A stretch of DNA of 64,000 nucleotides from Dehalococcoidia bacterium (GTDB lineage: Bacteria > Chloroflexota > Dehalococcoidia > UBA2979): the NCBI GenBank assembly GCA_965237865.1, contig OZ250164.1, forward strand, positions 309,217 to 373,216, read 5' to 3'. Under the pieces are notes generated by a model. It was not told the origin of the DNA, searched no databases, and saw only the letters and a list, made by a program, of their open reading frames with translations. Shown here piece by piece: positions 6,057 to 64,000 of the stretch (its first letter is position 1; every line of letters starts with the position of its first letter). The translations under genes were made by a program, and so were the position numbers.

Positions 6057-6962
6057 CTACGTCCCCACGCCGTACTGCTCGGCGAAGTCGCGGATGGCGC
6101 CGATGTGCTCCTCGGGCGAGTAGTCCAGCTCCATGGTGCTGTAGTGCAGGTGCGTGACGCCCGCCGCCTGCACTTGCTCCGCCAGGTCGAGTTGCTGGTC
6201 CGGATTGAGGCCCGCGGCGTGCAGGTTGCTGCTCAGCCCCAGCGTCGAGGGGTCGCGCCCGGCGGCGCGGGCGGCGCCGAAGAACTTCTCGGCCTCGCTC
6301 GCGATCCGGCCCGGGTCGCCGCGGTAGGCGCGCGGCACGTGCCAGCCGTCCGCGAGGCGGCCCGCGCGGTCGACCGCGAGATCGGCCATCGCGCCGACCC
6401 AGATCGGGATCGGGCGTTCGGGCAGCGGCTTCAGCCCCGCCTTGGTCACGCGATCGAAGCGGCCCTCGAAGGTCACGAGCGGCTCCGTCCAGAGCTGCCG
6501 CAGCAGTCCGATCTGCTCCTCCATGCGCCGCCCGCGCGTCCGGTAGTCCTCGCCCAGCGCCTCGAACTCGACCGAGTTCCAGCCGACCCCGACGCCGAGG
6601 ATGAGCCGCCCGCCACCCGCGAGGATGTCGATCTCCGCGCACTGCTTGGCGACGAGCGCAGTCTGCCGCTGCGGCAGCACCAGCACGCCGGTCATGAACT
6701 CGAGGCGTTCGGTCAGCCCGGCGAGGAAGCCGAAGAGCACGAACGGCTCGTGGAAGGCACTCTCATGCGTGTAGGGCGGCGTGACCCGGTTTCCGTAGGG
6801 CCCGAGCCAGACGCCCTCGGGGCGATCGGGGTGGGCGCCGAGGACGTGATCGTAGGCGACGAGGCGGGTGTAGCCGAGATCCTCGGCGGCCTGCGCGAAG
6901 TCGCGGATCGCGATCCGGTCGTTCCCGATCTCGTTCGTGGGGAAGACGACGCCCAGCTCCAT
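6057..6962 (-). CDS. LLM-class F420-dependent oxidoreductase
   Basis: 301 aa; MELGVVFPTNEIGNDRIAIRDFAQAAEDLGYTRLVAYDHVLGAHP... is typical of F420-dependent LLM oxidoreductases. Confidence 0.8.
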   Translation of the reverse strand: MELGVVFPTNEIGNDRIAIRDFAQAAEDLGYTRLVAYDHVLGAHPDRPEGVWLGPYGNRVTPPYTHESAFHEPFVLFGFLAGLTERLEFMTGVLVLPQRQTALVAKQCAEIDILAGGGRLILGVGVGWNSVEFEALGEDYRTRGRRMEEQIGLLRQLWTEPLVTFEGRFDRVTKAGLKPLPERPIPIWVGAMADLAVDRAGRLADGWHVPRAYRGDPGRIASEAEKFFGAARAAGRDPSTLGLSSNLHAAGLNPDQQLDLAEQVQAAGVTHLHYSTMELDYSPEEHIGAIRDFAEQYGVGT

Positions 6963-7081
6963 CTCCGGCTCCGTTCCGCGCCAGCGATGCGGCGCGCCGG
7001 GATGGTACCGTAGCCCCGGCCTGCAGGGGCCAGGAACGCCAGCGAGACACGATCGCCGGCGGTGCGTGAGAGGCGGGGGCG

Positions 7082-8374
7082 GTGCTGATCGGGCATTTCA
7101 CGGAACGGCCATACCAGGACGAGGAGCACGGCTTCTTCGGCTCGACCACGCGCGAGGCGTACTTCGACCTCGGCCTCAGCAACAAGGACTACGACCCGCG
7201 GCTCGGAGCGCTCCTGTATCACCGCTACCTCGACGAGAAGCTCGCGGCCGAGGAGGCCGGGTTCGACGCGCTGATGCTCAACGAGCACCACAGCACCCCC
7301 GCCTGCATGGGCGGCGTGATGAACGTAGAGGCGGCGATCCTCGCGCGAATCACCACGAAGCCGAGGATCCTGCTGCTCGGCAACATCCTGCCGATCTGGG
7401 AGGACCCGCTCTGGCTCGCCGAGTCGCTCGCCGAGATCGACATGATCTCGCGTGGCCGCCTCGTGACCGGCTGGGTGCACGGCTCGGGGCGCGAGAGCGT
7501 CTCGCACAACGCGCAGCCGCCGTTCAACCGCGAGCGCTTCATCGAGGCGCACGACTTCATCGTCAGCGCCTGGACGAAGTCCGGCCCCTTCCGCTGGGAG
7601 GGCGAGCACTACAACTACCGCTACGTGAACCCCTTCACGCGCCCCTACCAGCAGCCGCACCCACCGATCTGGATTCCCGGCGGGGGCAGCAAGGAGAGCA
7701 CCGACTGGGCCGCCCAGCACCGCTACCCCTACGTGATGCTCGCGACCTCGCCCGAGGCGACGCGCGAGTCGTTCGCGTTCTACGACGAGCAGGCGCGCGA
7801 GCACGGCTTCGAGGCCGGCTCGCAGCACCGCGGCTACCTCTTCAAGGTCCACGTCGAGGCGACCGACGAGCTGGCGCACGAGGTCGGCCGCAAGTACATC
7901 CAGGGGCCGCCGAACCCGTTCCTCGAGGGCAACCAGGGCGGCGTCCATCGCTACCTGCAGAACCTGCCGGGTCTCGCGCCGCGGAACCGCACGATGCCCG
8001 CGGCCGCGCGCAACCGCGCCACCGCCTACTCGCGCGGCCTCGCGCCGCCGCCGGAGAGCGGCCCCGCGCTCTCCACGATCGAGCGCTCCGCCGGCACCTA
8101 CGAGCAGCAGGTCGAGCGCATGACGATCATCACCGGATCGCCGCAGACGGTGATCGAGAAGCTGCGCCACATCCTCGAGCTGCTGCGGCCGGGCTCGATC
8201 ATCCTCTGGGACGGCGAGGGCGCGATGAGCCACGAGGACCAGATGCGCAGCATGAAGCTGATGGGCGATGAGGTGCTCCCGGCCGTCCGCGAGATCGGGC
8301 GGGCGCTGGAGCTGCACAGCCCCTTCGAGGTCGATCCGGTGACGAACCAGCCCGTCGAGCCCGTCGCGTCGTAG
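7082..8374 (+). CDS. LLM-class flavin-dependent monooxygenase/oxidoreductase
   Basis: 430 aa; LGALLYHRYLDEKLAAEEAGFDALMLNEHHSTPACMGG resembles luciferase-like monooxygenases. Divergent from the 6057-6962 gene. Confidence 0.8.
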   Translation: MLIGHFTERPYQDEEHGFFGSTTREAYFDLGLSNKDYDPRLGALLYHRYLDEKLAAEEAGFDALMLNEHHSTPACMGGVMNVEAAILARITTKPRILLLGNILPIWEDPLWLAESLAEIDMISRGRLVTGWVHGSGRESVSHNAQPPFNRERFIEAHDFIVSAWTKSGPFRWEGEHYNYRYVNPFTRPYQQPHPPIWIPGGGSKESTDWAAQHRYPYVMLATSPEATRESFAFYDEQAREHGFEAGSQHRGYLFKVHVEATDELAHEVGRKYIQGPPNPFLEGNQGGVHRYLQNLPGLAPRNRTMPAAARNRATAYSRGLAPPPESGPALSTIERSAGTYEQQVERMTIITGSPQTVIEKLRHILELLRPGSIILWDGEGAMSHEDQMRSMKLMGDEVLPAVREIGRALELHSPFEVDPVTNQPVEPVAS

Positions 8375-9552: not shown

Positions 9553-11178
9553 ATGCTGCACAGCCTGATGAGCGACGACCACCCCCTCACGCTCGCCATG
9601 CTGTTCGAGCGCGCCGCGACGCAGTTCCCGGACAACGAGCTCGTCAGCCGCTTCCCCGACGGCCGCATCCACCGCTACCGCTACGCCGAATTCGCGCGCC
9701 GCACGCGCAAGCTTGCGAACGCCCTCGCCACGCTCGGCATCGAGCCCGGCGACCGGGTCGCGACGCTCTGCTGGAACGAGCATCGCCACCTGGAGCTCTA
9801 CTTCGCCGTGCCGATGAGCGGCGCCGTCGTGCACACGCTCAACGCGCGCCTGCACGCCGACGAGCTGACCTACATCGTCAACGACGCCGCGGACCGCGCG
9901 CTCTTCGTGCACAGCTCGCTGCTCGCCGCCTTCGAGGAGATCCGCGACCGCGTCTCCGTGGAGCACGTGATCGTGATCCCGGACGACGGCGAGACGCCCG
10001 AGGGGTACCGGGACTACGAGGAGCTGATCGCGGACGAGCCCGAGACGTTCGAGCCGCCGCCGCTGGACGAGCGGCAGGCCTCGGGGATGTGCCACACCTC
10101 GGGCACCACGGGCCGCCCCAAGGGCGTGCTCTACAGCCACCGCTCCACCTCATTGCTGGCGATGATGAGCTGCATGACGGACACCGTCGGCGTCCGCGAG
10201 CGCGACTCGATCCTGCCGGTGGTGCCGATGTACCACGCGAACGCCTGGGGCCTGCCCTACGCCGCGACGTACGCGGGCGCGAAGCAGGTCTTCCCCGGTC
10301 GCGACCTCAGCGCGGAGAGTTTGCTCCGCCTCTTCGCGGACGAGGGCGTCACCCTCACCGGCGGCGTGCCCACCGTCTTCCTCGACGTGCTGCGCATGCT
10401 CGACGAGCGGCCCGGCGAGTGGGACCTGTCCTCGATGCGCTCGATGCTGATCGGCGGATCGGCGGCGCCGCCCTCGCTGATCGAGGGCTTCGACCGCCAC
10501 GGGCTGCACGTCACGCACGCCTGGGGCATGACGGAGATGAACCCGCTCGGCAGCATCGCCAACCTCAAGCGCTCGCACGACGGGCTCGACGACGAAGGCA
10601 CGCTCGCCGTGCGTGCCCGCCAGGGCCACGCGCAGCCGCTGATCCAGTTCCGCCACGTCTCCGAGGACGGCACGGTGCAGCCCTGGGACGGCGAAGCGCT
10701 CGGCGAGTTGCAGGTGCGCGGGCCGACGATCGCGCGCGCCTACTACGGCGTCGAGCGCGCCGACGACTTCGCCGGCGACGGCTGGTTCCGCACGGGCGAC
10801 ATCGTGACGATCGACGAGCACGGCTCGATCCTGATCGCCGACCGCGCGCGCGACGTGGTGAAGTCCGGCGGCGAGTGGATCAGCAGCGTGGCGCTGGAGA
10901 ACGCGCTGATGGCGCATCCCGCCGTCGTCGAGGCCGCCGTCTTCGCGGCCGAGGACGAGCGCTGGGGCGAGCGCCCGCTGGCCGCCGTCGTCCACGCCCC
11001 GGACGTGAGCGCCAGCGACGAGGAGCTGCGCGCCTGGCTGGAGCCGCAGTTCCTGCGCTGGTGGCTCCCCGCCGGCTTCGTCGCCGTCGACGAAGTCCCG
11101 AAGACCTCGACCGGCAAGTTCGACAAGGCCGCGCTGCGCGAGCGCTACGGGCGGCGGCTGATCGAGGGCGCGGACTAG
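9553..11178 (+). CDS. AMP-dependent acyl-CoA synthetase / fatty-acid--CoA ligase
   Basis: 541 aa; MCHTSGTTGRPKGVLYSHRS (AMP-binding motif), GWFRTGD, and the terminal K in PKTSTGKFDK. Confidence 0.85.
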   Translation: MLHSLMSDDHPLTLAMLFERAATQFPDNELVSRFPDGRIHRYRYAEFARRTRKLANALATLGIEPGDRVATLCWNEHRHLELYFAVPMSGAVVHTLNARLHADELTYIVNDAADRALFVHSSLLAAFEEIRDRVSVEHVIVIPDDGETPEGYRDYEELIADEPETFEPPPLDERQASGMCHTSGTTGRPKGVLYSHRSTSLLAMMSCMTDTVGVRERDSILPVVPMYHANAWGLPYAATYAGAKQVFPGRDLSAESLLRLFADEGVTLTGGVPTVFLDVLRMLDERPGEWDLSSMRSMLIGGSAAPPSLIEGFDRHGLHVTHAWGMTEMNPLGSIANLKRSHDGLDDEGTLAVRARQGHAQPLIQFRHVSEDGTVQPWDGEALGELQVRGPTIARAYYGVERADDFAGDGWFRTGDIVTIDEHGSILIADRARDVVKSGGEWISSVALENALMAHPAVVEAAVFAAEDERWGERPLAAVVHAPDVSASDEELRAWLEPQFLRWWLPAGFVAVDEVPKTSTGKFDKAALRERYGRRLIEGAD

Positions 11179-11222
11179 GGCCGGCGGCCGGGGGGCGCCA
11201 CGGGGAGCCGGGCAGGAGCGAC

Positions 11223-11732
11223 GTGGAGACGAGAATCCTCGACTGGGACGACGTGCAGGGCCTGCTCGCGGGGTTGAGCGACCGCCTCGGTGAGGGCTCG
11301 GTGGTGTGGGGCGTGCCGCGCGGCGGCAGCCACGTCGCCTCGATGCTCAGCGTGCGCGGCGTCCGCGTCGCGCTCTCGCCCGTGGAGGCGACGGTCGCCG
11401 TCGACGACGTGATCGACACCGGCCGGACTGCCGAGCGCGTGCGCCTCCGCTACGGCATCGAGACGCTGGCGCTCGTCACGCGCCACGAGGGCGAGCTGTA
11501 CTACCTCTTCCCCTGGGAGCGCGCGGAGCTCGATAGCGGGTTGGACGCGGACGCCCGGGACCACGTCACGAGGCTGCTGCTGCTGCTCGGCGACGAGCCG
11601 CAGCGTGCGGAGTTGCAGCAGACGCCCGATCGCGTCGTCGAGTCGTGGAAGACGCTGTACGCGGGCTACCTCTCGGAGCCCGGCGAACTCAAGGCGTCGC
11701 TGAACTGGTTCAGCGACGCACCCCGGAGATGA
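11223..11732 (+). CDS. type-I phosphoribosyltransferase-like domain fused in frame to the N-terminal helix of GTP cyclohydrolase I; frame terminates at a C4-run frameshift
   Basis: GTG at 11223 follows GGAGCG. VVWGVPRGGSHVASML and VAVDDVIDTGRT give the PPi loop and PRPP-binding motif. This is followed without a stop by DARDHVTRLLLLLGDEPQRAELQQTPDRVVESWKTLYAGY, the FolE N-terminal helix. The frame stops at 11730-11732. Confidence 0.55.
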   Translation: METRILDWDDVQGLLAGLSDRLGEGSVVWGVPRGGSHVASMLSVRGVRVALSPVEATVAVDDVIDTGRTAERVRLRYGIETLALVTRHEGELYYLFPWERAELDSGLDADARDHVTRLLLLLGDEPQRAELQQTPDRVVESWKTLYAGYLSEPGELKASLNWFSDAPRR

Positions 11733-12121
11733 TCGTCGTGCGCGACATCTCCTTCCTCAGCAGCTGCGAGGAGCACCTGCTGCCCTTCTTCGGCACGGTC
11801 GGCGTGGCCTACCTGCCGAACGACCACGCCCTCGGCGAGAGCAAGCTGCACCAGATCGTCAGCGTCGTCAGCCGCAAGCTGCAGAGCCAGCAGCGCATGA
11901 CGCGCGAGATCGGCGAGGTCGTCTTCGACGCCGAGCGCACGCGCGGCGTCGCCGTGCACTCCCGTGCCACGCACCTCTGCTTCGCCGCGCTCGGCGCCGA
12001 GCGCGAGGGCGTGACCGTCGAGGAGACGTGGCTGTCCGGCGCCTTCGAGGCGGACCCGGGCACGCACTCGCGCTTCCTCGAAGCGCTGGGCGACGCCAGG
12101 GACGGCGTCAGTCCGGCCTGA
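11723..12121 (+). CDS. folE: GTP cyclohydrolase I (FolE) catalytic core, in a different frame from the N-terminal part (frameshifted gene)
   Basis: PEMIVVRDISFLSSCEEHLLPFFGTVGVAYLPNDHALGESKLHQIVSVVSRKLQSQQRMTREIGEVV...ATHLCF is the FolE core. Inserting one C into the C4 run at 11721-11724 restores a continuous FolE. The motif is CEEH where FolE normally has CEHH. Confidence 0.6.
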   Translation, partial: PEMIVVRDISFLSSCEEHLLPFFGTVGVAYLPNDHALGESKLHQIVSVVSRKLQSQQRMTREIGEVVFDAERTRGVAVHSRATHLCFAALGAEREGVTVEETWLSGAFEADPGTHSRFLEALGDARDGVSPA

Positions 12122-12130
12122 GCCGCGCTC

Positions 12131-13624
12131 CTACGCGAACCCGCGGCGCGCGAGGAAGCGCGGGTTGCTGATCCGCGTCGCGTCGAGCGCTCGGGTGCGC
12201 AGCCAGGCGGCGAGGGCGGCCTGCTCCGGGCCGGCGTCGTAGCGGCCCGCGCGGATGTCGCCAGCGAGGCGCGCCTCGGCGTCGCGCAGTGCGGCGCGCA
12301 CGTCCGCGTCGGCAGCAGCCGGTGCGCCCTCGATGGCGGCGAGGTCGGCAAGGGCGCGTCGTGCGGGCGCCTCGCCTGCTTCCAGTTCGCGCGCGGCGAT
12401 GCCCATCGCGTTGTCGGCCATGAGCAGCGCGTAGCGCTGCGCGCCCGGCACGTGCGGCGCGAGCTCGTCCATCAGCGCGCCGCGCGCGGCTTCGAGCAGC
12501 GCCGCGCCGTCGAGGGGATCGGATGCGGCTGACGCCACCGCGTCCGCCGGGGGCGAAGGCGTGGCGTCCGCGCCGCTGCCGTACTCGCCGCGCTCGCCCT
12601 CCTCGATCAGCGTCAGGATCTCTACTTCGATCTCGTCGACGATGCGGCCGGTCAGCGCCAGTTCCAGCGAGGGCTGGCGTCCGCTGCTGTGGCGCTCGCC
12701 CTGGTGGATGGCGATCACCGCCCAGCGCACGTGCGCCATCACCTCCCAGTAGTGGAGCGCCCTCGGCGGCAGCTCGCGCCCGTAGCCGCGCTCGAAGTCG
12801 GCGAGGTCGCCGAGGCCGCCGGCGCGGCGGTCGTAGCGGTTGAAGCGCCAGCAGCGGGCGCTGAACCAGCCGGCGTCATCGAGCGGATCGCCCCAGCGCG
12901 CGAACTCCCAGTCGAGGACCCCGTGCAGCCCGCCCTCGCCGACGAGGAAGTTGCCGGTCCGGTAGTCGCTGTGGACCAGCACCAGGCGGTCCGTCCGTGG
13001 CGCCTCGCGCTCCAGCCAGCGCAGGCCCCACTCCATGGCCGGCCGCGGCTTCGGGTGCGCGTCGAGGGCGGCTCGATACTCGGCGACGGCGGCGAGCGCC
13101 GGGCTCGGCTCGGGCGTGGGCAGCCACTCAAGGCCGGCCGTTCCCGGCTCCAGCGTCTGGATGCGCGCGAGCTCCGCGCCGAGCTGCTCGAGCAGCGCCG
13201 GACGCGGGCCGCCGAGCGTCTCGTCGCGCACAAGCAGATGCCCCGCCGCGACGCCCTCGACAAAGCGTGAGATGGAGAAGGCGCGTCCCAGCACGGAATC
13301 GTCGGCCTGCCAGAGCGGCTCCGGCACGGCGACGCCGGCCTCGAACGCCGCGCGCGCGATCGTGAACTCCTCGGCGACGCTGTGGCTCTCCTCCAGCCGC
13401 GCGTCGCCCTCGGCGCGCAGCACGATGGCGATCGGATCGCCACCGTGGGGGCCGCCCTCGAAGGCCACGTTGATGCGCCAGTGCTGGTGGATCGCGCCAC
13501 CCGTGAGCGGCGTCGTGTCGCCGATGCTCGCGCGCTCGGCTCCGGCGACCGCGGCGAGCCAGCCCGCGAGGGCGTCCCGCACCGCCTCGTCGCCGAGGTC
13601 CAGCGGCGCAGCGGCGGAGCTCAC
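12131..13624 (-). CDS. phosphotransferase-family protein (APH/choline-kinase fold, ACAD-associated) with C-terminal helical extension
   Basis: C-terminal 497 aa of the 731-aa track ORF; VLVHSDYRTGNFLVGEGGLHGVLDWEFARWGDP carries the HxDxxxxN and D motifs. GTG at 13622-13624 overlaps the ACAD stop by 4 nt. Confidence 0.75.
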   Translation of the reverse strand: MSSAAAPLDLGDEAVRDALAGWLAAVAGAERASIGDTTPLTGGAIHQHWRINVAFEGGPHGGDPIAIVLRAEGDARLEESHSVAEEFTIARAAFEAGVAVPEPLWQADDSVLGRAFSISRFVEGVAAGHLLVRDETLGGPRPALLEQLGAELARIQTLEPGTAGLEWLPTPEPSPALAAVAEYRAALDAHPKPRPAMEWGLRWLEREAPRTDRLVLVHSDYRTGNFLVGEGGLHGVLDWEFARWGDPLDDAGWFSARCWRFNRYDRRAGGLGDLADFERGYGRELPPRALHYWEVMAHVRWAVIAIHQGERHSSGRQPSLELALTGRIVDEIEVEILTLIEEGERGEYGSGADATPSPPADAVASAASDPLDGAALLEAARGALMDELAPHVPGAQRYALLMADNAMGIAARELEAGEAPARRALADLAAIEGAPAAADADVRAALRDAEARLAGDIRAGRYDAGPEQAALAAWLRTRALDATRISNPRFLARRGFA

Positions 13625-27356: not shown

Positions 27357-28097
27357 TCAGCGCTGAGCCGCGCGCTCCTCGGCCAGCGCCTCGCGCTGCG
27401 CCACGAACAGGTCCGCGATCCCCGCCCCCGCGAGCGCGACGACGCGATCGAGGTCGCCTCGGGAGAAGGGGGCGCGCTCGGCCGTGCCCTGCACCTCGAC
27501 GAGCTTCCCCGTGCCGAGCTGCACGACGTTGAAGTCCGTCTCCGCGCTCGAGTCCTCGTCGTAGTCGAGGTCGAGCAGCGCCATGCCGTCGCTGAGGCCG
27601 ACCGAGATCGCGGCGACCTGCGTCGTGAGCGGCGAGGCGGCGAGCGCGCCGCCGCGCTGCAGCCAGTCGATCGCCAGCGCCAGCGCCACCCAGCCGCCGG
27701 TAACCGCCGCGGTGCGGGTGCCGCCGTCGGCCTGGATCACGTCGCAGTCGACGGTGATTGTCTGCTCGCCGAGCCGGTCGAGGTCGAGCGCGGCGCGCAG
27801 CGAGCGGCCGATCAGGCGCTGGATCTCCTGGGAGCGTCCGCTCTGACGGCCCTCGCGGGCCTCGCGGCGGCCGCGCGTGTGCGTCGCGCGGGGCAGCATC
27901 CCGTACTCCGCCGTCACCCAGCCGGAGCCGGTGCCGCGCAGCCAGCGCGGCACGCCGCGCTCGACGCTGGCCGCGCAGAGCACGCGCGTGTCGCCCATCG
28001 AGATCAGCGCGGCGCCCTCGGCGTGCCGCAGCACGCCGGTCTCGATCGTCAGCGGACGCAGCTCCTCGAGGCTGCGCCCGCGTAGTCGGCTCACCAT
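27357..28097 (-). CDS. rph: ribonuclease PH
   Basis: [45 protein letters not shown]...[14 protein letters not shown]...[20 protein letters not shown]; ATG at 28095-28097 with GGGAGG upstream. Confidence 0.85.
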
Positions 28098-28141
28098 CGC
28101 TGGCCTCCCGATCGCTGCCCTCGAGTCACCGTAGCACGCGA

Positions 28142-30456
28142 TCAGCGCGAACTCCGCACCCACAACCGCTCGCCGTCGGAGCGCAACGTCACGTCCCCGT
28201 GCTCGTCCGTGCGGTAGAGGGCGATCGCGGCGTAGCGCGCGACCACCTCCGGGTGCGGGTGGCCGTGCCGGTTGCGCGCCCCGACCGAGGCGATCGCGAC
28301 TCTCGGCTCGACCGCCTCGAGGAAGACCTCGCTCGACGACGTGCGCGAGCCGTGGTGCGGCAGCACCAGCGCGTCCGCCCGCAGGTCGAGCCCGCTCGAG
28401 GCGAGCCACTGCTCGGCGGGCGCCTCGATGTCCGCGGGCAGCAGGATCCGCCGCTCGCCGATCGTCACCAGCAGCACGAGCGAGCGGTTGTTGGCGCCGC
28501 GGTGCGCGCGGCCCGCCGTGACGACGGGCGGCGAGAGCACCTCGATCGAGGTCCGCTCGCTGAGCCGGATGCGATCGCCGATGTCGAGCGCCCGCGCGCC
28601 GCCGTCGCCGTCATCGGGGGCCACGGCGGCGAGCGTCTCCGCGCTGCCGAGCAGCACGCCGACGCGCAGACGCCGCCGCAACTCCGCCAGCCCGCCCGCG
28701 TGATCGCTGTCGCCGTGCGTGAGCAGCACCGCGTCGAGCGTGCGGCCCTCGAGGGCGCGAGGCAGCGCCGTCAGCACGGCGCCGTCGGCCGGTCCGGTGT
28801 CCACCAGTACGGCCGCGCCGCGATCGCGCACGAGGATCGCCTGCCCCTGTCCGACATCGAGCACGGTCACGCTCGCCATGCCGTCCGAGGGCGTCAGCAC
28901 GGCCAGCCAGAGGCCCGCTGCCGCCGTCGCGAGCGCGACCGGCGCCGCGAGGCGCGCACGTTGCCCCGGCAGCGCGATCAGCGACGCCCGCCGGTTGAGC
29001 AGCCAGACGAGGCCGCCCAGCAGCGCGAACCAGCCCGCGCCGGCGAGGAGCGACGGTCGCAGCTCGACCGTCGCGATCGGCAGCGAGGCCATCGCCTTGA
29101 CGGCGGCGACGAAGGCCGCGGGCGCGAAGACGCCGGCGACCTCGACGAGCCGCGCGACGGGCTCGAGCCAGCCGAGCAGCGCCGCGACCGCGGCGACGAG
29201 CACGGTCGCCTCGTAGAGCGGCGCGACGGCCACGTTCGCCGGCGCCTGCAGCAGCGGCAGCGTTCCGAAGGCGGCGGCCTGCACCGGCAGCACCGCGAGC
29301 GAGGCCCCGACTGCGCCGCCGCCTCGGTAAACCCGGCCGCGAGGCTGCCCGGCGCCACGCCGAGGCGGGCGAGGGCGCGGTCGCGCAGCGGCGGCGCGAT
29401 CAGCAGCACCCCGACGGTCGCCGTCGCGCTCAGTTGGAAGGCCACGTCGCGGATCAGCAGCGGCCGCAGCGCCAGCATCAGCGCGAGCGCGTAGACGAGG
29501 TAGATCCAGGCGGGCGTGCGCCTCCCCGTGATCGCGGCGATCGCGATGCCGACGGCCATGATCGCCGCCCGCACCACCGGCGGCTCGGCCCCCGTGAGCA
29601 CGACGTAGCCCGGCAGCAGCGCGAGCGCGATCAGCGCCGCCTGCCGCCTCGCGACCAGCGCGCCGAGCAGGCCCACCGCCGTCCCGAGGAGCAGCGCGAT
29701 GTTCTGCCCGGAGACGACCAGCAGGTGGGTCGTCCCCGTGCGGCGCAGACTCTCCTCCAACGCCGCCGGCATCGTGCGCTGCCGCCCCAGCAGCATGCCT
29801 GCCGCCAGCGACGCCTCCGGCTCCGGCAGGGCGAGCTCGATGTTGCCGAGCGCCCAGCGCCGCATCCCTCGCAGCGCGTCGACGATCGCGGGCTCGGCGT
29901 TGCGTTCGAGCAGCGTCCAGCGCTGCGGGTACGCGGCGACGGCGTGGATGCCGCGGCTGCGCAGGAACGCCGCGTAGTCGAACTCCTCGAAGGCGCCGGG
30001 ACGCTCGACCTCCAGCGTTGCGGAGATGCGGTCGCCCGCACGCAGCGGCTGCAGCGGGGCAGGCAGCCTGAGCCGCAGTCCGCCCTCCGCCGCTGCGCCG
30101 TCGATCGACTCGACGCGCAGATCGAGGCGCGCGATCGCGCCCGACACGCGCGGGTCCGGGAGCACCACGCCCGTGATCTCGTGCACGCCCTCGAGGCTGG
30201 CGAGCGGCGGCGGGGCGCGCGAGTCCGCCTCGCTTCCCCGGGCGTGCCCGGCGGCGGCAAGGGCCACGACCGCGATCAGCATCAGCAACGTGCGGGCCCG
30301 GCCGCCGCGTCCGAGGCGCCAGAGCGCCGCCGCCGCGCTCGCCGCGAGCGCGGCCAGCAGGGTCACGGTCCACGGCCCGCCGATCAGCGCGCCGCCGATG
30401 CAGCCCGCGATGAACGCCGCCGCCGCAAGCGGCAGTGCGGGAACCCGCGCGCTCAC
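28142..30456 (-). CDS. comEC: ComEC/Rec2 competence protein (DUF4131 plus competence TM domain plus C-terminal MBL domain); reading frame broken in a C4/G4 run
   Basis: The N-part (track ORF 28978-30456) and C-part (track ORF 28142-30373, with MBL motif [12 protein letters not shown]) are in different frames. One extra G/C in the C4 run at 29305-29308 gives a continuous ...[35 protein letters not shown].... GTG start overlaps the comEA stop. Confidence 0.75.
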
Positions 30457-59757: not shown

Positions 59758-60135
59758 GTGAAGCTCACGATCGTCGTCCCCGCCTTCAACGAAGAGGCCT
59801 ACCTCGCCGCGACCCTCGATTCCATCAAGGCCGCCGCCGCGCACCTGCGCGCCCACTCCGACGCCGGGATCGAGACGATCGTCGTCGCCAACAACAGCGA
59901 GGACGGGACCGCCGCCATCGCTCGCGAGCAGGGCGCGAGGGTGGTCGACGAGCCGGTGCAGGGCATCGCGCGGGCCCGCACCGCCGGCGCCCGCAACGCC
60001 GAGGGTGAGGTGCTGGTCTTCGTCGACGCGGACGTGATCGTGCCGGACACGCTCCTCACGGCGATCCATGCTTCATCGCGCTGTTCCGTCGGCAAGGCGG
60101 TCTGGCAGGGCTGGTACAGGCACGAGGTGCGGTAG
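59758..60135 (+). CDS. glycosyltransferase family 2, N-terminal fragment (125 aa, probably truncated)
   Basis: MKLTIVVPAFNEEAYLAATLDSIKAAA...LVFVDADVIVP (DxD) is the GT2 N-terminal half; the reading frame stops after ~125 aa without the acceptor-binding half. Confidence 0.55.
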   Translation: MKLTIVVPAFNEEAYLAATLDSIKAAAAHLRAHSDAGIETIVVANNSEDGTAAIAREQGARVVDEPVQGIARARTAGARNAEGEVLVFVDADVIVPDTLLTAIHASSRCSVGKAVWQGWYRHEVR

Positions 60136-60289
60136 CCCTCGCGCGGCCCGGTAAGGCCCGAATCGCAGCTCCCGAGGGCCGCGACGTTGACCCTCGATCC
60201 GGCGGGCTCTACCATTCACAAAAGCAGGGTGACCGTGGCGGGACCCATGCGACAACCTGGCAACGGACGGCCTCGGGCGCATCCCGGGC

Positions 60290-60410: not shown

Positions 60411-61562
60411 ATGACGGCAGCGCAGCGCAAGAGCCTCGAGCGCGCCTGGGGGTTCGACGACGTGGCGATCGTCCCCGGCGCCGTCACCACGAACCCCGAC
60501 CTCGTCGAGCCCGTCCTCACCCTCGGCGAGCACTCCTTCCCCGTCCCGATCCTCGCCTCGGCCATGGACGCGGTCGTCGACCCCTCCTTCGCCTCCGCGC
60601 TCACCAAGGCCGGCGGCCTCGCCGTGCTCAACCTCGAGGGCCTGCAAACCCGCTACGAGGACACCGAGGGCATCTTCGAGGAGATCGCCGCCGCCAACCT
60701 CGAGCACTCGACCGAGATCATCCAGCACGTCTACTCCCAGCCGATCCGCGACGAGCTCGTCGGACGCCGCATCGAGGAGATCATCGAGCGTGGCGGCATC
60801 GCCGCCGTCAGCGCCACGCCGCAGAACACGAAGCGCCTGGCGCCGATCGCGAAGGACGCGGGCGCGAGCTTCTTCGCCGTGCAGTCCACCGTCACCACCG
60901 CCCGCCACGTCTCGCGCTCCCTGCGCGGTCTGCGCCTCGACGAGCTGGTCGAGCAGATCGCCCCCGTCCCCGTGCTCGTCGGCAACACGGTTGACACCGG
61001 GGCGGCGATGGAGCTGATGGAGACGGGCGTGCACGCGCTGCTCGTCGGCGTGGGGCCGGGCGCGGCGTGCACCTCGCGCGAGGTGCTGGGCATCGGCATC
61101 CCGCAGGTCAGCGCCACGCTCGACACCGCCTACGCGCGCGACCTCTACCACGAGCAGACGGGCCGCTACGTGCCGATCATCACGGACGGCGGCATCCGCA
61201 CCGGCGGCGACCTCTCGAAGTCGATCTGCGCGGGCGCCGACGCGGTGATGATCGGCTCCCCGTTCTCGGCGACGAAGGAAGCCCCGGGGCGCGGCTACCA
61301 CTGGGGCATGGCGACCCCGCACGCGGAGCTGCCTCGAGGCGTGCGCGTGCACGTCGGCCAGCCGCGCACCCTCGACACGCTGCTCTTCGGCCCGACCTCG
61401 CGCACGGACGGCACCGAGAACCTGGTCGGCGCCCTGCGCACCTCGATGGCCACCTGCGGCGCCCTCACCATCCCGGAGTTCCACGCCGCGCGCATGGTGA
61501 TTGCTCCGTCGATCAAGACGGAGGGGAAGATCTACCAGCTGGCGCAGCAGACGCCAGGGTAG
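60411..61562 (+). CDS. IMP dehydrogenase-family protein lacking CBS domains (GuaB3-like)
   Basis: MTAAQRKSLERAWGFDDVAIVPGAVTTNPDLV...ASAMDAVV...GVGPGAACTSREVLGIGIPQVSA...ITDGGIRTGGDLSKSICAGADAVMIGS is an IMPDH/GMPR TIM barrel without a CBS insert. GGGAGGG upstream; ATG is the 32nd codon of the track ORF. Confidence 0.75.
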   Translation: MTAAQRKSLERAWGFDDVAIVPGAVTTNPDLVEPVLTLGEHSFPVPILASAMDAVVDPSFASALTKAGGLAVLNLEGLQTRYEDTEGIFEEIAAANLEHSTEIIQHVYSQPIRDELVGRRIEEIIERGGIAAVSATPQNTKRLAPIAKDAGASFFAVQSTVTTARHVSRSLRGLRLDELVEQIAPVPVLVGNTVDTGAAMELMETGVHALLVGVGPGAACTSREVLGIGIPQVSATLDTAYARDLYHEQTGRYVPIITDGGIRTGGDLSKSICAGADAVMIGSPFSATKEAPGRGYHWGMATPHAELPRGVRVHVGQPRTLDTLLFGPTSRTDGTENLVGALRTSMATCGALTIPEFHAARMVIAPSIKTEGKIYQLAQQTPG

Positions 61563-61573
61563 GGGCGGGGGCA

Positions 61574-61603
61574 TTGACAGAACACATGTTTCTGCTTCAT
61601 GAT
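61574..61603 (+). promoter_or_regulatory. candidate sigma70-like promoter (TTGACA -35 plus weak -10) in front of the methyltransferase operon
   Basis: TTGACA at 61574-61579, then a 17-18 nt spacer, then TCATGA/CATGAT. AT-richer than the surrounding sequence. The -10 is weak. Confidence 0.25.
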
Positions 61604-62531
61604 GGCAGCCCATGAAGGTCTGGGGAGCATGACGCAGGCGAGTCTCGTTCCGTCTCCCCAGACGGAGCCCGACAAGATCCCAACTTCGCCTATCCCGGCC
61701 GTGAACGTCGCCTCCGTACCCCAGCGCAGCCCGCTCCGCTATCCCGGTGGTAAGACGTGGCTGATCCCGCATATCCGTGCTTGGCTCGAGGCATTGGAGT
61801 CCGAACAGCGACTGCTGATCGAGCCTTTCTGCGGCGGCGGCATCGTGTCGCTCACCGCAGTCATGGAAGGGTACGTCGAGCGGGCACTGATGGCCGAGAT
61901 CGATCGCGACGTAGCCGCGTTCTGGCACGCGGCGCTCCGTCACGGCGACGAACTGCGGAAGCGGTGGCTCGGCTTCGAACCAACGCGGGAGACGGTCGAG
62001 CAGTTGGCGCGTCAGCACCCGGAGAATGTCGTCGACCGTGGGTTCCGCACGCTCGTTCTGAATCGGACGCGCCGCGGCGGCATCCTGGCGCCCGGGGCGT
62101 CATTCACCCGGAACGGTGAGAACGGCAAGGGAATCAGATCCCGCTGGTACCCAGAGACGATCGCGAACCGGCTGCGTGAGATCTCCGGCTGCGTCGACCG
62201 GCTCGTGTTCTGCGAGACGGACGGGATGCAACTCCTCGCGGCGACCGTACGAACTCCAGGGTCGGTCGTGTTTGCCGATCCGCCTTACACAGCCGGAGGT
62301 AAACGGGCTGGCGCACGCCTCTACGCTTCGCACGAGTTCGATCACGCGGACCTGTTCGCGCTGTTGGATGACTCTGGGGCAGAGTTCCTGATGACCTACG
62401 ACCGCGCGCCAGAGATTGTTTCGCTCGTGGAGAAGCATGGGTTCTGTGCTGTCGGCGTCTCGATGAAGAACACGCACCACGCGCAAGTACAGGAGTTGGT
62501 GATCACGCGGCGTCCGGTGTTCTCGGGATGA
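61599..62531 (+). CDS. DNA adenine (N6) methyltransferase, Dam/D12 class
   Basis: RYPGGKTWLIPHI, EPFCGGG (motif I, FxGxG), FADPPYTAGG (motif IV, DPPY). Alternative start ATG 61629 (MTQASL...) with GGGGAG upstream. Noticeably lower G+C than flanking core genes. Confidence 0.8.
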   Translation: MMAAHEGLGSMTQASLVPSPQTEPDKIPTSPIPAVNVASVPQRSPLRYPGGKTWLIPHIRAWLEALESEQRLLIEPFCGGGIVSLTAVMEGYVERALMAEIDRDVAAFWHAALRHGDELRKRWLGFEPTRETVEQLARQHPENVVDRGFRTLVLNRTRRGGILAPGASFTRNGENGKGIRSRWYPETIANRLREISGCVDRLVFCETDGMQLLAATVRTPGSVVFADPPYTAGGKRAGARLYASHEFDHADLFALLDDSGAEFLMTYDRAPEIVSLVEKHGFCAVGVSMKNTHHAQVQELVITRRPVFSG

Positions 62532-63430
62532 AGGCTCCCCGCTACGGCATCGCGGAGTGGTACGGCCAGCGGTTCGCCACGCTCACGCCAGCGGCGCGCA
62601 CACGGCTCGCTGACCGCGCGCTTGGTGGCGGTGAGCCCCCACCCTGCCCGTTCCAGGACGGCGAGCCCCCGTGTTCCAAGAAGTACGGTGTCTGCTCCAT
62701 CGACCGGTACGCGGAGGGTGACGATAGTCGGCTCGGCGAGCCGGACGGGGAGCCGGTCATTACCTGCCCGCGAAGATTCGAAGAGGGCCGCCTACTTGTA
62801 CTCTGGCTCGCCGAGATCGTTGGTTTCCCTCCGGGTCAGGTACAGATCGCCCGTGAAGTTGCGTTCATGCGGAACCCGAACACGGGCCGCGCAGCCGGGA
62901 TGATCGACTTGGTAGTGGCAACGGACCCGAACGGCAGGATCGAGTGGTACGGGATGGAGATGCAGGCCGTCTACTTCTCGGGTAGCGGGATGCCGGCGGA
63001 AATCGAAGCTCAGCGGAGCGAGCCCGGCGACGAGCGCTCCGCGCCCTTCCCCAACGCTGTCCGCCGTCCGGACTGGCGCTCGTCGAGCGCAAAGCGTCTG
63101 ATGCCACAGTTGGACGTCAAGGTTCCGCTGCTCCGGCAGTGGGGGCGTAAGACCGCCGTCGCGGTGGACCGGCCATTCTTCGACTCGATCGGGGGTCCGA
63201 GCGTCGCGCCCAGTGACGACCTTGATGCCGGCGACGTGATCTGGATGGTACCCGACCTCGTCGCCGACAGCAGCGGCCGGTACCACTTGGAGCGCGGGCA
63301 CTGGGAAGTGCTGACACTCGAAGACTCGCGGCGCAAGCTACTCTCGGCCGAACCTATCTCTCGCGCCGCGTTCGAAGATGTGCTTCGGAGCAAGCTCGAG
63401 CCGCTTAGGCGCGCACAGGATGGTCCATGA
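62528..63430 (+). CDS. putative restriction endonuclease-like protein (Cys-rich N-terminal metal-binding module plus PD-(D/E)xK-like core)
   Basis: ATG overlaps the methyltransferase stop (ATGA). The N-terminus carries a five-Cys cluster (CPFQDG...CSKKYGVCSIDRY...ITCPRRF). A central MIDLVVATDPNGRIEWYGMEMQAVYFSG segment looks like a beta-strand D...E.E/Q nuclease core. The functional call is inference from context. Confidence 0.4.
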   Translation: MKAPRYGIAEWYGQRFATLTPAARTRLADRALGGGEPPPCPFQDGEPPCSKKYGVCSIDRYAEGDDSRLGEPDGEPVITCPRRFEEGRLLVLWLAEIVGFPPGQVQIAREVAFMRNPNTGRAAGMIDLVVATDPNGRIEWYGMEMQAVYFSGSGMPAEIEAQRSEPGDERSAPFPNAVRRPDWRSSSAKRLMPQLDVKVPLLRQWGRKTAVAVDRPFFDSIGGPSVAPSDDLDAGDVIWMVPDLVADSSGRYHLERGHWEVLTLEDSRRKLLSAEPISRAAFEDVLRSKLEPLRRAQDGP

Positions 63431-64000
63431 ATGGTGAACGATCTCTCGCCTGGTTCGTACTTCAAGTTTTACGCTGGCTATCGGGGCAACTGCCCACGGT
63501 GCGGCACGAAGGCTGTGACCTTTAAGCGGCTGTTTCCAGAAACAATAAACGAGCTGTTCCTCGTGCGTGTGATGGTGCTTCGTTGCGAGCACTGTCAGAG
63601 GGCGTTCACAGCCGAAACTGAGGTCCTAAGTACGGACACAGGGAATACGCGAATGTTCCGCTTCTACCCTCCAGCGGGGGTTGAGGTTACTCCCAGCCCC
63701 TTTCTTCCCGAAGGCTCAGGAATCGTCGAGTCACTTCAGGAGGCGAGACTCTGCGGTGCCGTTGGAGCAGGTGGTGGGCGGCTGCATGTTGGCTCGTCGT
63801 GCGATCCAGCTCGTTGTGCGCGATAGGGGCGCGAGCGGCAAGAACCTCGCCGACGAAATCGATTCGCTTGAGATTTCCGAAGACCTTAAGACCGTCGCCC
63901 ACTCGATCAGGCTCATCGGCAACGAAGCAGCACACCCTGACCTTGATGACTGGAGCAACGTCACCAGCCAAGATCTCCTGATGCTGTTGGGGCTGATATC
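63431..64000 (+). CDS. zinc-ribbon plus DUF4145-domain protein (frameshifted in a G-run; 3' end beyond window)
   Basis: The N-part CPRCGTKAVTF...CEHCQRAFT is two CxxC ribbons. After a frame change near 63771-63780 the sequence reads ...GCMLARRAIQLVVRDRGASGKNLADEIDSLEISEDLKTVAHSIRLIGNEAAHPDLDDWSNVTSQDLLMLLGLI, which matches the DUF4145 consensus (...IR.IGN.AAHP...). ATG lies immediately after the upstream gene stop. Confidence 0.6.

Follow-up and report, generated by a model that had tools for sequence, protein, structure and literature searches.

Introduction

The locus described here resembles three known systems, namely the restriction endonuclease NotI, the RNase RAZR and the E. coli prophage system PD-lambda-5. 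It lies at the end of a 64,000-nt stretch of DNA from a Dehalococcoidia bacterium (contig OZ250164.1, 309,217-373,216). This whole stretch is called the window, and all coordinates given for it are positions in the window. One after the other, the locus encodes an adenine methyltransferase (M), a nuclease (R) and a protein with a zinc ribbon and a DUF4145 domain (gene 3).

The recognition site of NotI, GCGGCCGC, contains no adenine. A review describes NotI as an enzyme with Fe2+ in a Cys4 structural motif, and in both NotI and BglII a Q is reported to stand where PD...(D/E)xK has its K (PMC4081073). PD-lambda-5 has been described as a compacted restriction-modification (R-M) plus abortive infection (Abi) system. 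RAZR (ring-activated zinc-finger RNase) is the new name of PD-T7-4 and combines a zinc finger with a DUF4145/HEPN RNase (PMC13017515). Ring-shaped phage proteins (Gp77, portal proteins) serve the E. coli protein as a scaffold for its oligomers; cleavage of cellular RNA and a halt of translation follow, which leads to abortive infection. A single gene suffices for this, and the residues R146 and H154 are required for defence (PMC13017515). The DUF4145 domain was placed in the HEPN superfamily in 2013, and operons that combine DUF4145 genes with R-M systems have been reported (Anantharaman et al. 2013).

Here we report that the block from 61565 to 64000 is, with high probability, a small defence spot made up of two independent units. 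These are a cassette of M and R, which recurs as a two-gene module in many genomes, and a homologue of RAZR, which stands alone in a sibling genome.

Results

A block of lower G+C content follows the IMPDH-like gene

Directly past the stop codon of an IMPDH-like gene (61562), the G+C content drops from 0.72 to 0.63. The value for 61565-64000 (0.633) is below that of all 592 segments of equal length elsewhere (minimum 0.680, mean 0.722; z = -4.3). Within the block, G+C is 0.64-0.66 in the first two genes and 0.57-0.59 in gene 3. The G+C content of third codon positions is likewise reduced (0.77 in M, 0.79 in R, and 0.62 and 0.74 in the two parts of gene 3) compared to the IMPDH-like gene, metG and tatD (0.95-0.97). 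The original prediction, which was made from the letters alone, had noted lower G+C from about 61560 onwards, and the comparison bears this out.

Three co-oriented open reading frames (ORFs) follow the IMPDH-like gene, at 61599-62531 (310 aa), 62528-63430 (300 aa) and 63431-63826 (131 aa). M and R overlap by the sequence ATGA at 62528-62531, and the ATG of gene 3 at 63431 abuts the TGA of R (63428-63430). The tight coupling of the genes had thus been read correctly. The features of the locus are as follows.

60411-61562, plus strand: IMPDH/GuaB-like core gene (Pfam IMPDH, 1.1e-44); its stop is the left edge of the variable spot
61563-61628, plus strand: left junction and cassette leader; neither the siblings nor other cassettes show homology here
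61599-62531, plus strand: M, alpha-class (D12) S-adenosylmethionine-dependent DNA adenine-N6 methyltransferase (Pfam PF02086, PADLOC, PDB)
62528-63430, plus strand: R, NotI-family type II restriction endonuclease (Cys4: C40, C49, C56, C80; D127...E144-x-Q146)
63431-63769, plus strand: RAZR/PD-T7-4 homologue, N-terminal part (Cys4 zinc ribbon, linker, start of HEPN)
63770, plus strand: single extra G, +1 frameshift (pairwise DNA alignment with the sibling contig L083)
63771-64000, continuing to about 64103, plus strand: RAZR/PD-T7-4 homologue, C-terminal DUF4145 (divergent HEPN RNase, R-x7-H motif)
59758-60135, plus strand: GT2 glycosyltransferase remnant (Pfam Glycos_transf_2, positions 1-97 of 168), outside the island

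M and R form a self-contained two-gene module

Homologues of R are numerous. A large protein collection contained 1399 of them, many with about 60% identity. After clustering at 50%, the wider R family comprised 728 clusters, and the subfamily found in the window fell essentially into one cluster. In a scan of one genome per species, at least 410 genomes encoded a relative. The best 80 loci among these (L002-L081) were surveyed, and neighbours were counted over 81 loci. The best 80 loci derive from metagenome-assembled genomes (MAGs) of at least seven phyla, and the listed lineages are Chloroflexota, Actinomycetota (including Candidatus Poriferisocius), Acidobacteriota, Latescibacterota, Binatia, Pseudomonadota and Rhodothermales.

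A homologue of M (58-81% identity) is located directly upstream of R in every one of the 81 loci, and across L002-L081 the pair is maintained at 51-81% protein identity. In 51 of the 81 loci the M stop and an NTG codon share bases (NTGA), in line with the stop/start overlap in the window. A homologue of the zinc-ribbon/DUF4145 protein was found within 6 kb in none of the 81 loci, either by tblastn or with a hidden Markov model built from two RAZR-like proteins. When the neighbouring ORFs within 3.5 kb were clustered, no family occurred in more than 13 of the 81 loci, and the top cluster, present in 13, resembles spurious high-G+C ORFs. No conserved third gene was therefore apparent. The G+C content of the pair is below that of its flanks in 64 of 67 loci, with a mean difference of 5.2 points, which fits repeated horizontal acquisition. 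M and R are thus a self-contained two-gene module of about 1.8-1.9 kb, most likely a type II R-M system, and the cassette has neither a controller protein nor a mobility gene.

Pairs of this kind have been annotated before. On RefSeq plasmids of Aeromonas veronii (NZ_CP121823.1) and A. caviae (NZ_AP026379.1), a 'NotI family restriction endonuclease' is encoded beside a 'DNA adenine methylase'. On a Paraburkholderia plasmid in RefSeq, such an endonuclease lies beside a cytosine methyltransferase and Vsr. The genes of the A. veronii pair are adjacent and co-oriented as in the window, and their products are 35% (R) and 41% (M; E 2e-80) identical to those described here. The order is reversed, however, with R before M and a gap of 133 bp, whereas M precedes and overlaps R in the window. 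In addition, the A. veronii pair resides on a 4-kb plasmid and the pair of the window is chromosomal. The Aeromonas pair is distant in sequence and may differ in specificity. Its homology to the pair of the window indicates that a NotI-type endonuclease with an adenine methylase is an already annotated kind of system.

The conservation of the pair also bears on the possibility that it no longer restricts, with M serving as an orphan or regulatory methylase and R being an inactive or re-purposed nuclease. Weaker PADLOC matches of M to orphan-methylase models would be in line with this. R, however, retains every residue that is invariant across 39 aligned family members, and its AlphaFold model is confident (pLDDT 89). 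Moreover, the linkage of M and R in 81 of 81 loci and the stop/start overlap in 51 argue for selection on both genes. We regard a loss of restriction as very improbable.

Names or bin labels of many of the MAGs in L002-L081 hint at sponge or coral hosts, Candidatus Poriferisocius being one example. In several Chloroflexota loci (L042, L054, L055 and L073) the cassette lies beside rph, which is located upstream of M. The RNase PH gene of the window (27357-28409, minus strand) shows about 70% nucleotide similarity to these upstream stretches, which reflects ordinary conservation of rph.

The first gene encodes an adenine methyltransferase of the D12 class

M matched the Pfam family MethyltransfD12 (PF02086) with an E-value of 1.4e-10 and 41.8 bits (cut-off 22). 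Motif I (FCGGG, residues 77-81) precedes motif IV (DPPY, residues 227-230). The original prediction had assigned the protein to the D12 class of adenine methyltransferases, in agreement with both the Pfam match and the motifs. The best PADLOC models were PD-Lambda-5_B (9.6e-43, positions 5-270 of 291) and MTase_II (1.8e-31), and the closest structures in the PDB are also adenine methyltransferases (7m6b, 1.3e-8; Dam, 1.4e-3). An orthologue of Dam (GATC) was considered and rejected. M reached 40.7 bits with TIGR00571 (cut-off 114.85) and 27.1 with PRK10904 (cut-off 441). Since these scores are far below the NCBIfam cut-offs for Dam, M is Dam-like in class only.

The homology on the DNA level between the cassette of the window and the closest cassettes covers only 61629-63409. 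A sigma-70-like site, consisting of TTGACA (61574-61579), a spacer of 18 nt and CATGAT (61598-61603), matches the consensus at 10 of 12 positions. The promoter scan yielded one site where 0.4 were expected, which alone is not significant. Because the homology between cassettes begins at 61629 and the promoter-like site occupies 61574-61603, the true start of M may be the ATG at 61629.

The second gene encodes a distant relative of NotI

R matched the Pfam family NotI (PF12183) with 131 bits (cut-off 22; E 5.9e-38) over model positions 16-233 of 238. A family can therefore be named for this protein, which the original prediction had left without one. It had also described a module of five cysteines, and R has four (C40, C49, C56 and C80). 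The N-terminal Cys module and the PD-(D/E)xK-type core that had been proposed are both present, and the likeness to metal-cluster type II endonucleases finds support in the assignment of R to a metal-site type II endonuclease family. In an alignment of 39 close homologues, C40, C49, C56, C80, D127, E144 and Q146 are all invariant. A broader alignment of 57 sequences comprised R of the window and 56 cluster representatives at 31-63% identity. Here three of the four cysteines are invariant and C40 is conserved in at least 90%, and D127, E144 and Q146 vary little or not at all. AlphaFold modelled R from the alignment with a pLDDT of 89 and a pTM of 0.84, and comparison with the NotI crystal structure (PDB 3bvq/3c25) revealed a fold common to both proteins.

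R shares with NotI the Pfam family and the N-terminal four-Cys metal site (predicted in R), and its D127...E144-x-Q146 is a candidate for the PD...ExQ-type motif, in which Q replaces the usual K. The four invariant cysteines and the D...ExQ arrangement fit the description of NotI in the review (PMC4081073). The two proteins are nevertheless only 17% identical, and R has 300 aa compared to 342 residues in the 3bvq chain. NotI must be a distant relative of R, because sequence profiles of the R clade do not reach the NotI chain. NCBIfam contains no model that matches R or the DUF4145 fragment.

A further difference to NotI concerns the partner of R, which is an adenine methyltransferase. Since the NotI site is free of adenine, the recognition site of R must differ from it. 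R as an isoschizomer of NotI is ruled out by this partner, a D12-class enzyme with DPPY that is not cytosine-specific. When 1.06 Mb of host loci were scanned for avoided palindromes, no 6-mer stood out as a candidate site; AAGCTT (0.45), CACGTG (0.54) and AGATCT (0.59) are mildly depleted.

The ORF of R extends about eight codons (RRAQDGP; 63407-63430) beyond the end that is usual among its homologues (...KLEPL). This tail may be junction sequence made by the insertion, because nearly all homologues end earlier and the homology between cassettes stops at 63409. Relatives of the NotI family were also present on 11 viral contigs of IMG/VR (L084-L094), with 30-39% identity to R, and none of them belongs to the close subfamily.

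Gene 3 is a frameshifted homologue of RAZR

The ORF that starts at 63431 encodes a zinc ribbon with the cysteines C21, C24, C52 and C55 and then continues in the wrong frame as far as a TAG (63824-63826). The Pfam DUF4145 match (3.7e-12) was found in another frame, which reaches from about 63741 up to position 64000 and beyond. In a pairwise DNA alignment with the sibling contig L083 a single gap separates the two sequences, where the window reads GCAGGTGG and L083 reads GCA-GTCA, which places an extra G at 63770. When this G was removed, the protein aligned without gaps to a 219-aa protein of L083. A 192-aa homologue of gene 3 on L083 (P0121) has 59% identity. The C-terminal part corresponds to a 115-aa protein of the source genome (P0122), which adds 44 residues past 64000 and puts the end of the gene about 100 nt beyond the window. 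Both domains named in the original prediction are thus present, in two frames and not in one ORF as had been assumed, and the gene exceeds the window. An intact polypeptide with both RAZR domains is encoded in L083 and not in the sequence of the window.

The assignment to RAZR rests on profiles, a match in the PDB and motifs. PADLOC matched PD-T7-4 with 2.2e-6 as the gene is written and with 1e-9 after repair (model positions 15-177 of 211). The repaired protein also matched the RAZR chain 9y9c_OA in the PDB (1.2e-4), with both CxxC pairs aligned. SIRLIGNEAAH of gene 3 aligns with ICRIVGNQAVH of RAZR, and the R and H of this stretch correspond to the catalytic R146 and H154. Gene 3 therefore has the N-terminal Cys4 zinc ribbon, the C-terminal DUF4145/HEPN domain and the aligned Arg and His in common with E. 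coli RAZR, as well as a length of about 220 aa and, in the sibling L083, a stand-alone position. It differs in being a distant homologue, as the E-values indicate, and in being frameshifted in the window. Taken together, gene 3 is a RAZR/PD-T7-4 homologue that should be inactive as written, because the extra G at 63770 separates the zinc ribbon from the HEPN domain.

Sibling genomes reveal the edge of a probable insertion

Two contigs of sibling genomes, L082 and L083, align with the window at 96.8% and 94.6% nucleotide identity, and the homology ends at 61564 and 61562, respectively. The shared backbone (recO, tatD, metG, GT2 and the IMPDH-like gene) is 92-97% identical to the window, and the IMPDH-like protein is identical in L082. 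In L083 an intact RAZR gene begins 8 bp past the IMPDH-like stop, M and R are missing, and a coiled-coil gene, prmC and prfA follow RAZR. At the same position L082 carries two unrelated genes (11157-12445), which encode proteins of 150 and 277 aa. The RAZR DNA of the window and of L083 is about 70% identical, compared to 92-95% for the flanks. The simplest reading is that the site downstream of the IMPDH-like gene would be a variable defence spot, in which an M-R cassette of 1.8-1.9 kb was probably inserted before a resident RAZR gene. The locus has neither an integrase nor a transposase, a search for a tRNA or a convincing flanking repeat found none, and the whole 64 kb contains no tRNA genes and no Rfam families at the gathering threshold. 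The three genes are neither syntenic core genes nor compositionally like their surroundings; the island is real, and the idea of foreign, defence-related DNA of lower G+C content is supported.

The sibling contigs also speak to the question whether the three genes act as one integrated system of methylase, nuclease and DUF4145 effector, as the original prediction had suggested with its variant R-M or defence module. In favour of this, the ORFs point in one direction and leave no intergenic space between them, DUF4145 genes have been reported in R-M operons (Anantharaman et al. 2013), and the best PADLOC match of M is the methylase model of PD-lambda-5, a described R-M plus Abi system. This combination is largely refuted by the census of neighbours, in which a DUF4145/zinc-ribbon gene accompanied M and R in 0 of 81 loci. 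L083 has no M or R beside its DUF4145 gene at the corresponding position, and RAZR acts on its own in E. coli. Furthermore, gene 3 is frameshifted and has a G+C content of 0.57, compared to 0.65 for M and R. PD-lambda-5 itself was tried as a candidate and rejected. It shares the methylase model with the locus (9.6e-43 for the B model), whereas its A component is unmatched, with no PD-Lambda-5_A match to R or gene 3 at E <= 0.1. One system of three genes is in our judgement extremely unlikely, and we consider the locus to be an M-R cassette next to a separate RAZR homologue.

Several points weigh against this reading in its details. The extra G at 63770 could have arisen by an error in sequencing or assembly; RAZR would then be intact, and two working defences would share one transcript. 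The change is a single G beside another G (GCAGGTGG), and the remainder of the gene is conserved, aligns without gaps to L083 and keeps the four Cys and the R...H pair. The related contigs are metagenome assemblies, and the reading frame of GT2 is also broken in L082. On the other side, gene 3 is represented in the public annotation of the source genome by its C-terminal ORF alone (P0122, 115 aa), which implies that the frameshift is present in the deposited sequence, and defence genes in variable spots often decay. An error is a serious possibility, which we judge somewhat less than even. D127, E144 and Q146 of R are putative counterparts of the catalytic residues of NotI, matched by the pattern of the motif. 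The order of events is derived from three genomes only, and a deletion of M and R in the lineage of L083 would give the same picture. Finally, the right end of the spot lies outside the window, and a return to prmC/prfA synteny there is an assumption based on the siblings.

The 7-nt sequence CCATGAA occurs at 61610-61616 and at 63425-63431, near both ends of the cassette. This is probably due to chance, and the repeat is too short to distinguish a target duplication from chance. The 150- and 277-aa genes of L082 have no Pfam family and only a weak PADLOC match (PDC-S32, 0.014), and the region 11157-12445 has a G+C content of 0.66 compared to 0.70-0.71 in its flanks. These two genes may form a further defence or toxin-antitoxin pair that has escaped recognition.

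The GT2 remnant is a separate event

The original prediction had linked the island to a truncated GT2 gene next to it and had taken this as a sign of a past insertion or deletion. An insertion probably did take place, as the breakpoints in the siblings indicate. The GT2 remnant, however, lies 1.4 kb away, beyond the conserved IMPDH-like gene, and stems from a different event. It is a 125-aa ORF with an in-frame internal deletion of 345 bp, and positions 7027-7371 of L083 are absent from the window. The gene is intact in L083 (241 aa; 6713-7438) and split across two frames in L082 (about 6487-7213). GT2 seems to decay independently in this lineage.

Between GT2 and the IMPDH-like gene a second variable spot was noticed. 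It measures 8 bp in the window (60136-60143), encodes an NHL-repeat protein of 822 aa in L082 (7214-9732) and contains a 187-aa gene on the opposite strand in L083 (7439-8470).

Discussion

We are confident that the locus consists of an ordinary type II R-M cassette and an adjoining frameshifted RNase gene of the RAZR type. According to this model, M would methylate adenine at the host copies of a specific site, and R, as a nuclease of the NotI-type PD-(D/E)xK fold, would cut the same site in unmethylated incoming DNA. The Cys4 metal site of R would position the DNA-recognition elements, and D127, E144 and Q146 would form the Mg2+ catalytic centre of what is probably a homodimer. The ATGA overlap suggests that translation of R is coupled to that of M, such that the nuclease would not be made without the methylase. 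The cassette would have been inserted between the IMPDH-like stop and an older resident RAZR gene. The RAZR homologue beside it would be an RNase of the abortive-infection type, the function of which is presumably lost in the gene as written.

Most genomes with M and R are associated with marine invertebrates, judging by names only. The data on the pair suggest a wide horizontal spread within host-associated communities. A more specific scenario is that M and R constitute an adenine-dependent enzyme of the NotI fold with a new and possibly long site, which spread recently and horizontally via a shared host-associated community. We consider this unlikely as a whole; if true, the M-R pair would serve as a community-wide methylation 'password'.

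The locus illustrates that tight packing of genes alone does not make a system on the level of an operon, as two defence units that differ in age and origin adjoin each other here. Both the M-R pair and the RAZR homologue belong to known kinds, and the current understanding of defence systems is unchanged. The comparison of three genomes provides a natural example of a bare R-M cassette, without a mobility gene, that lies between a stop codon and the start codon that follows it, in a variable defence spot. R belongs to a large and highly conserved subfamily of the NotI fold that comes with an adenine methylase, and this subfamily would be a reasonable source of new restriction specificity.

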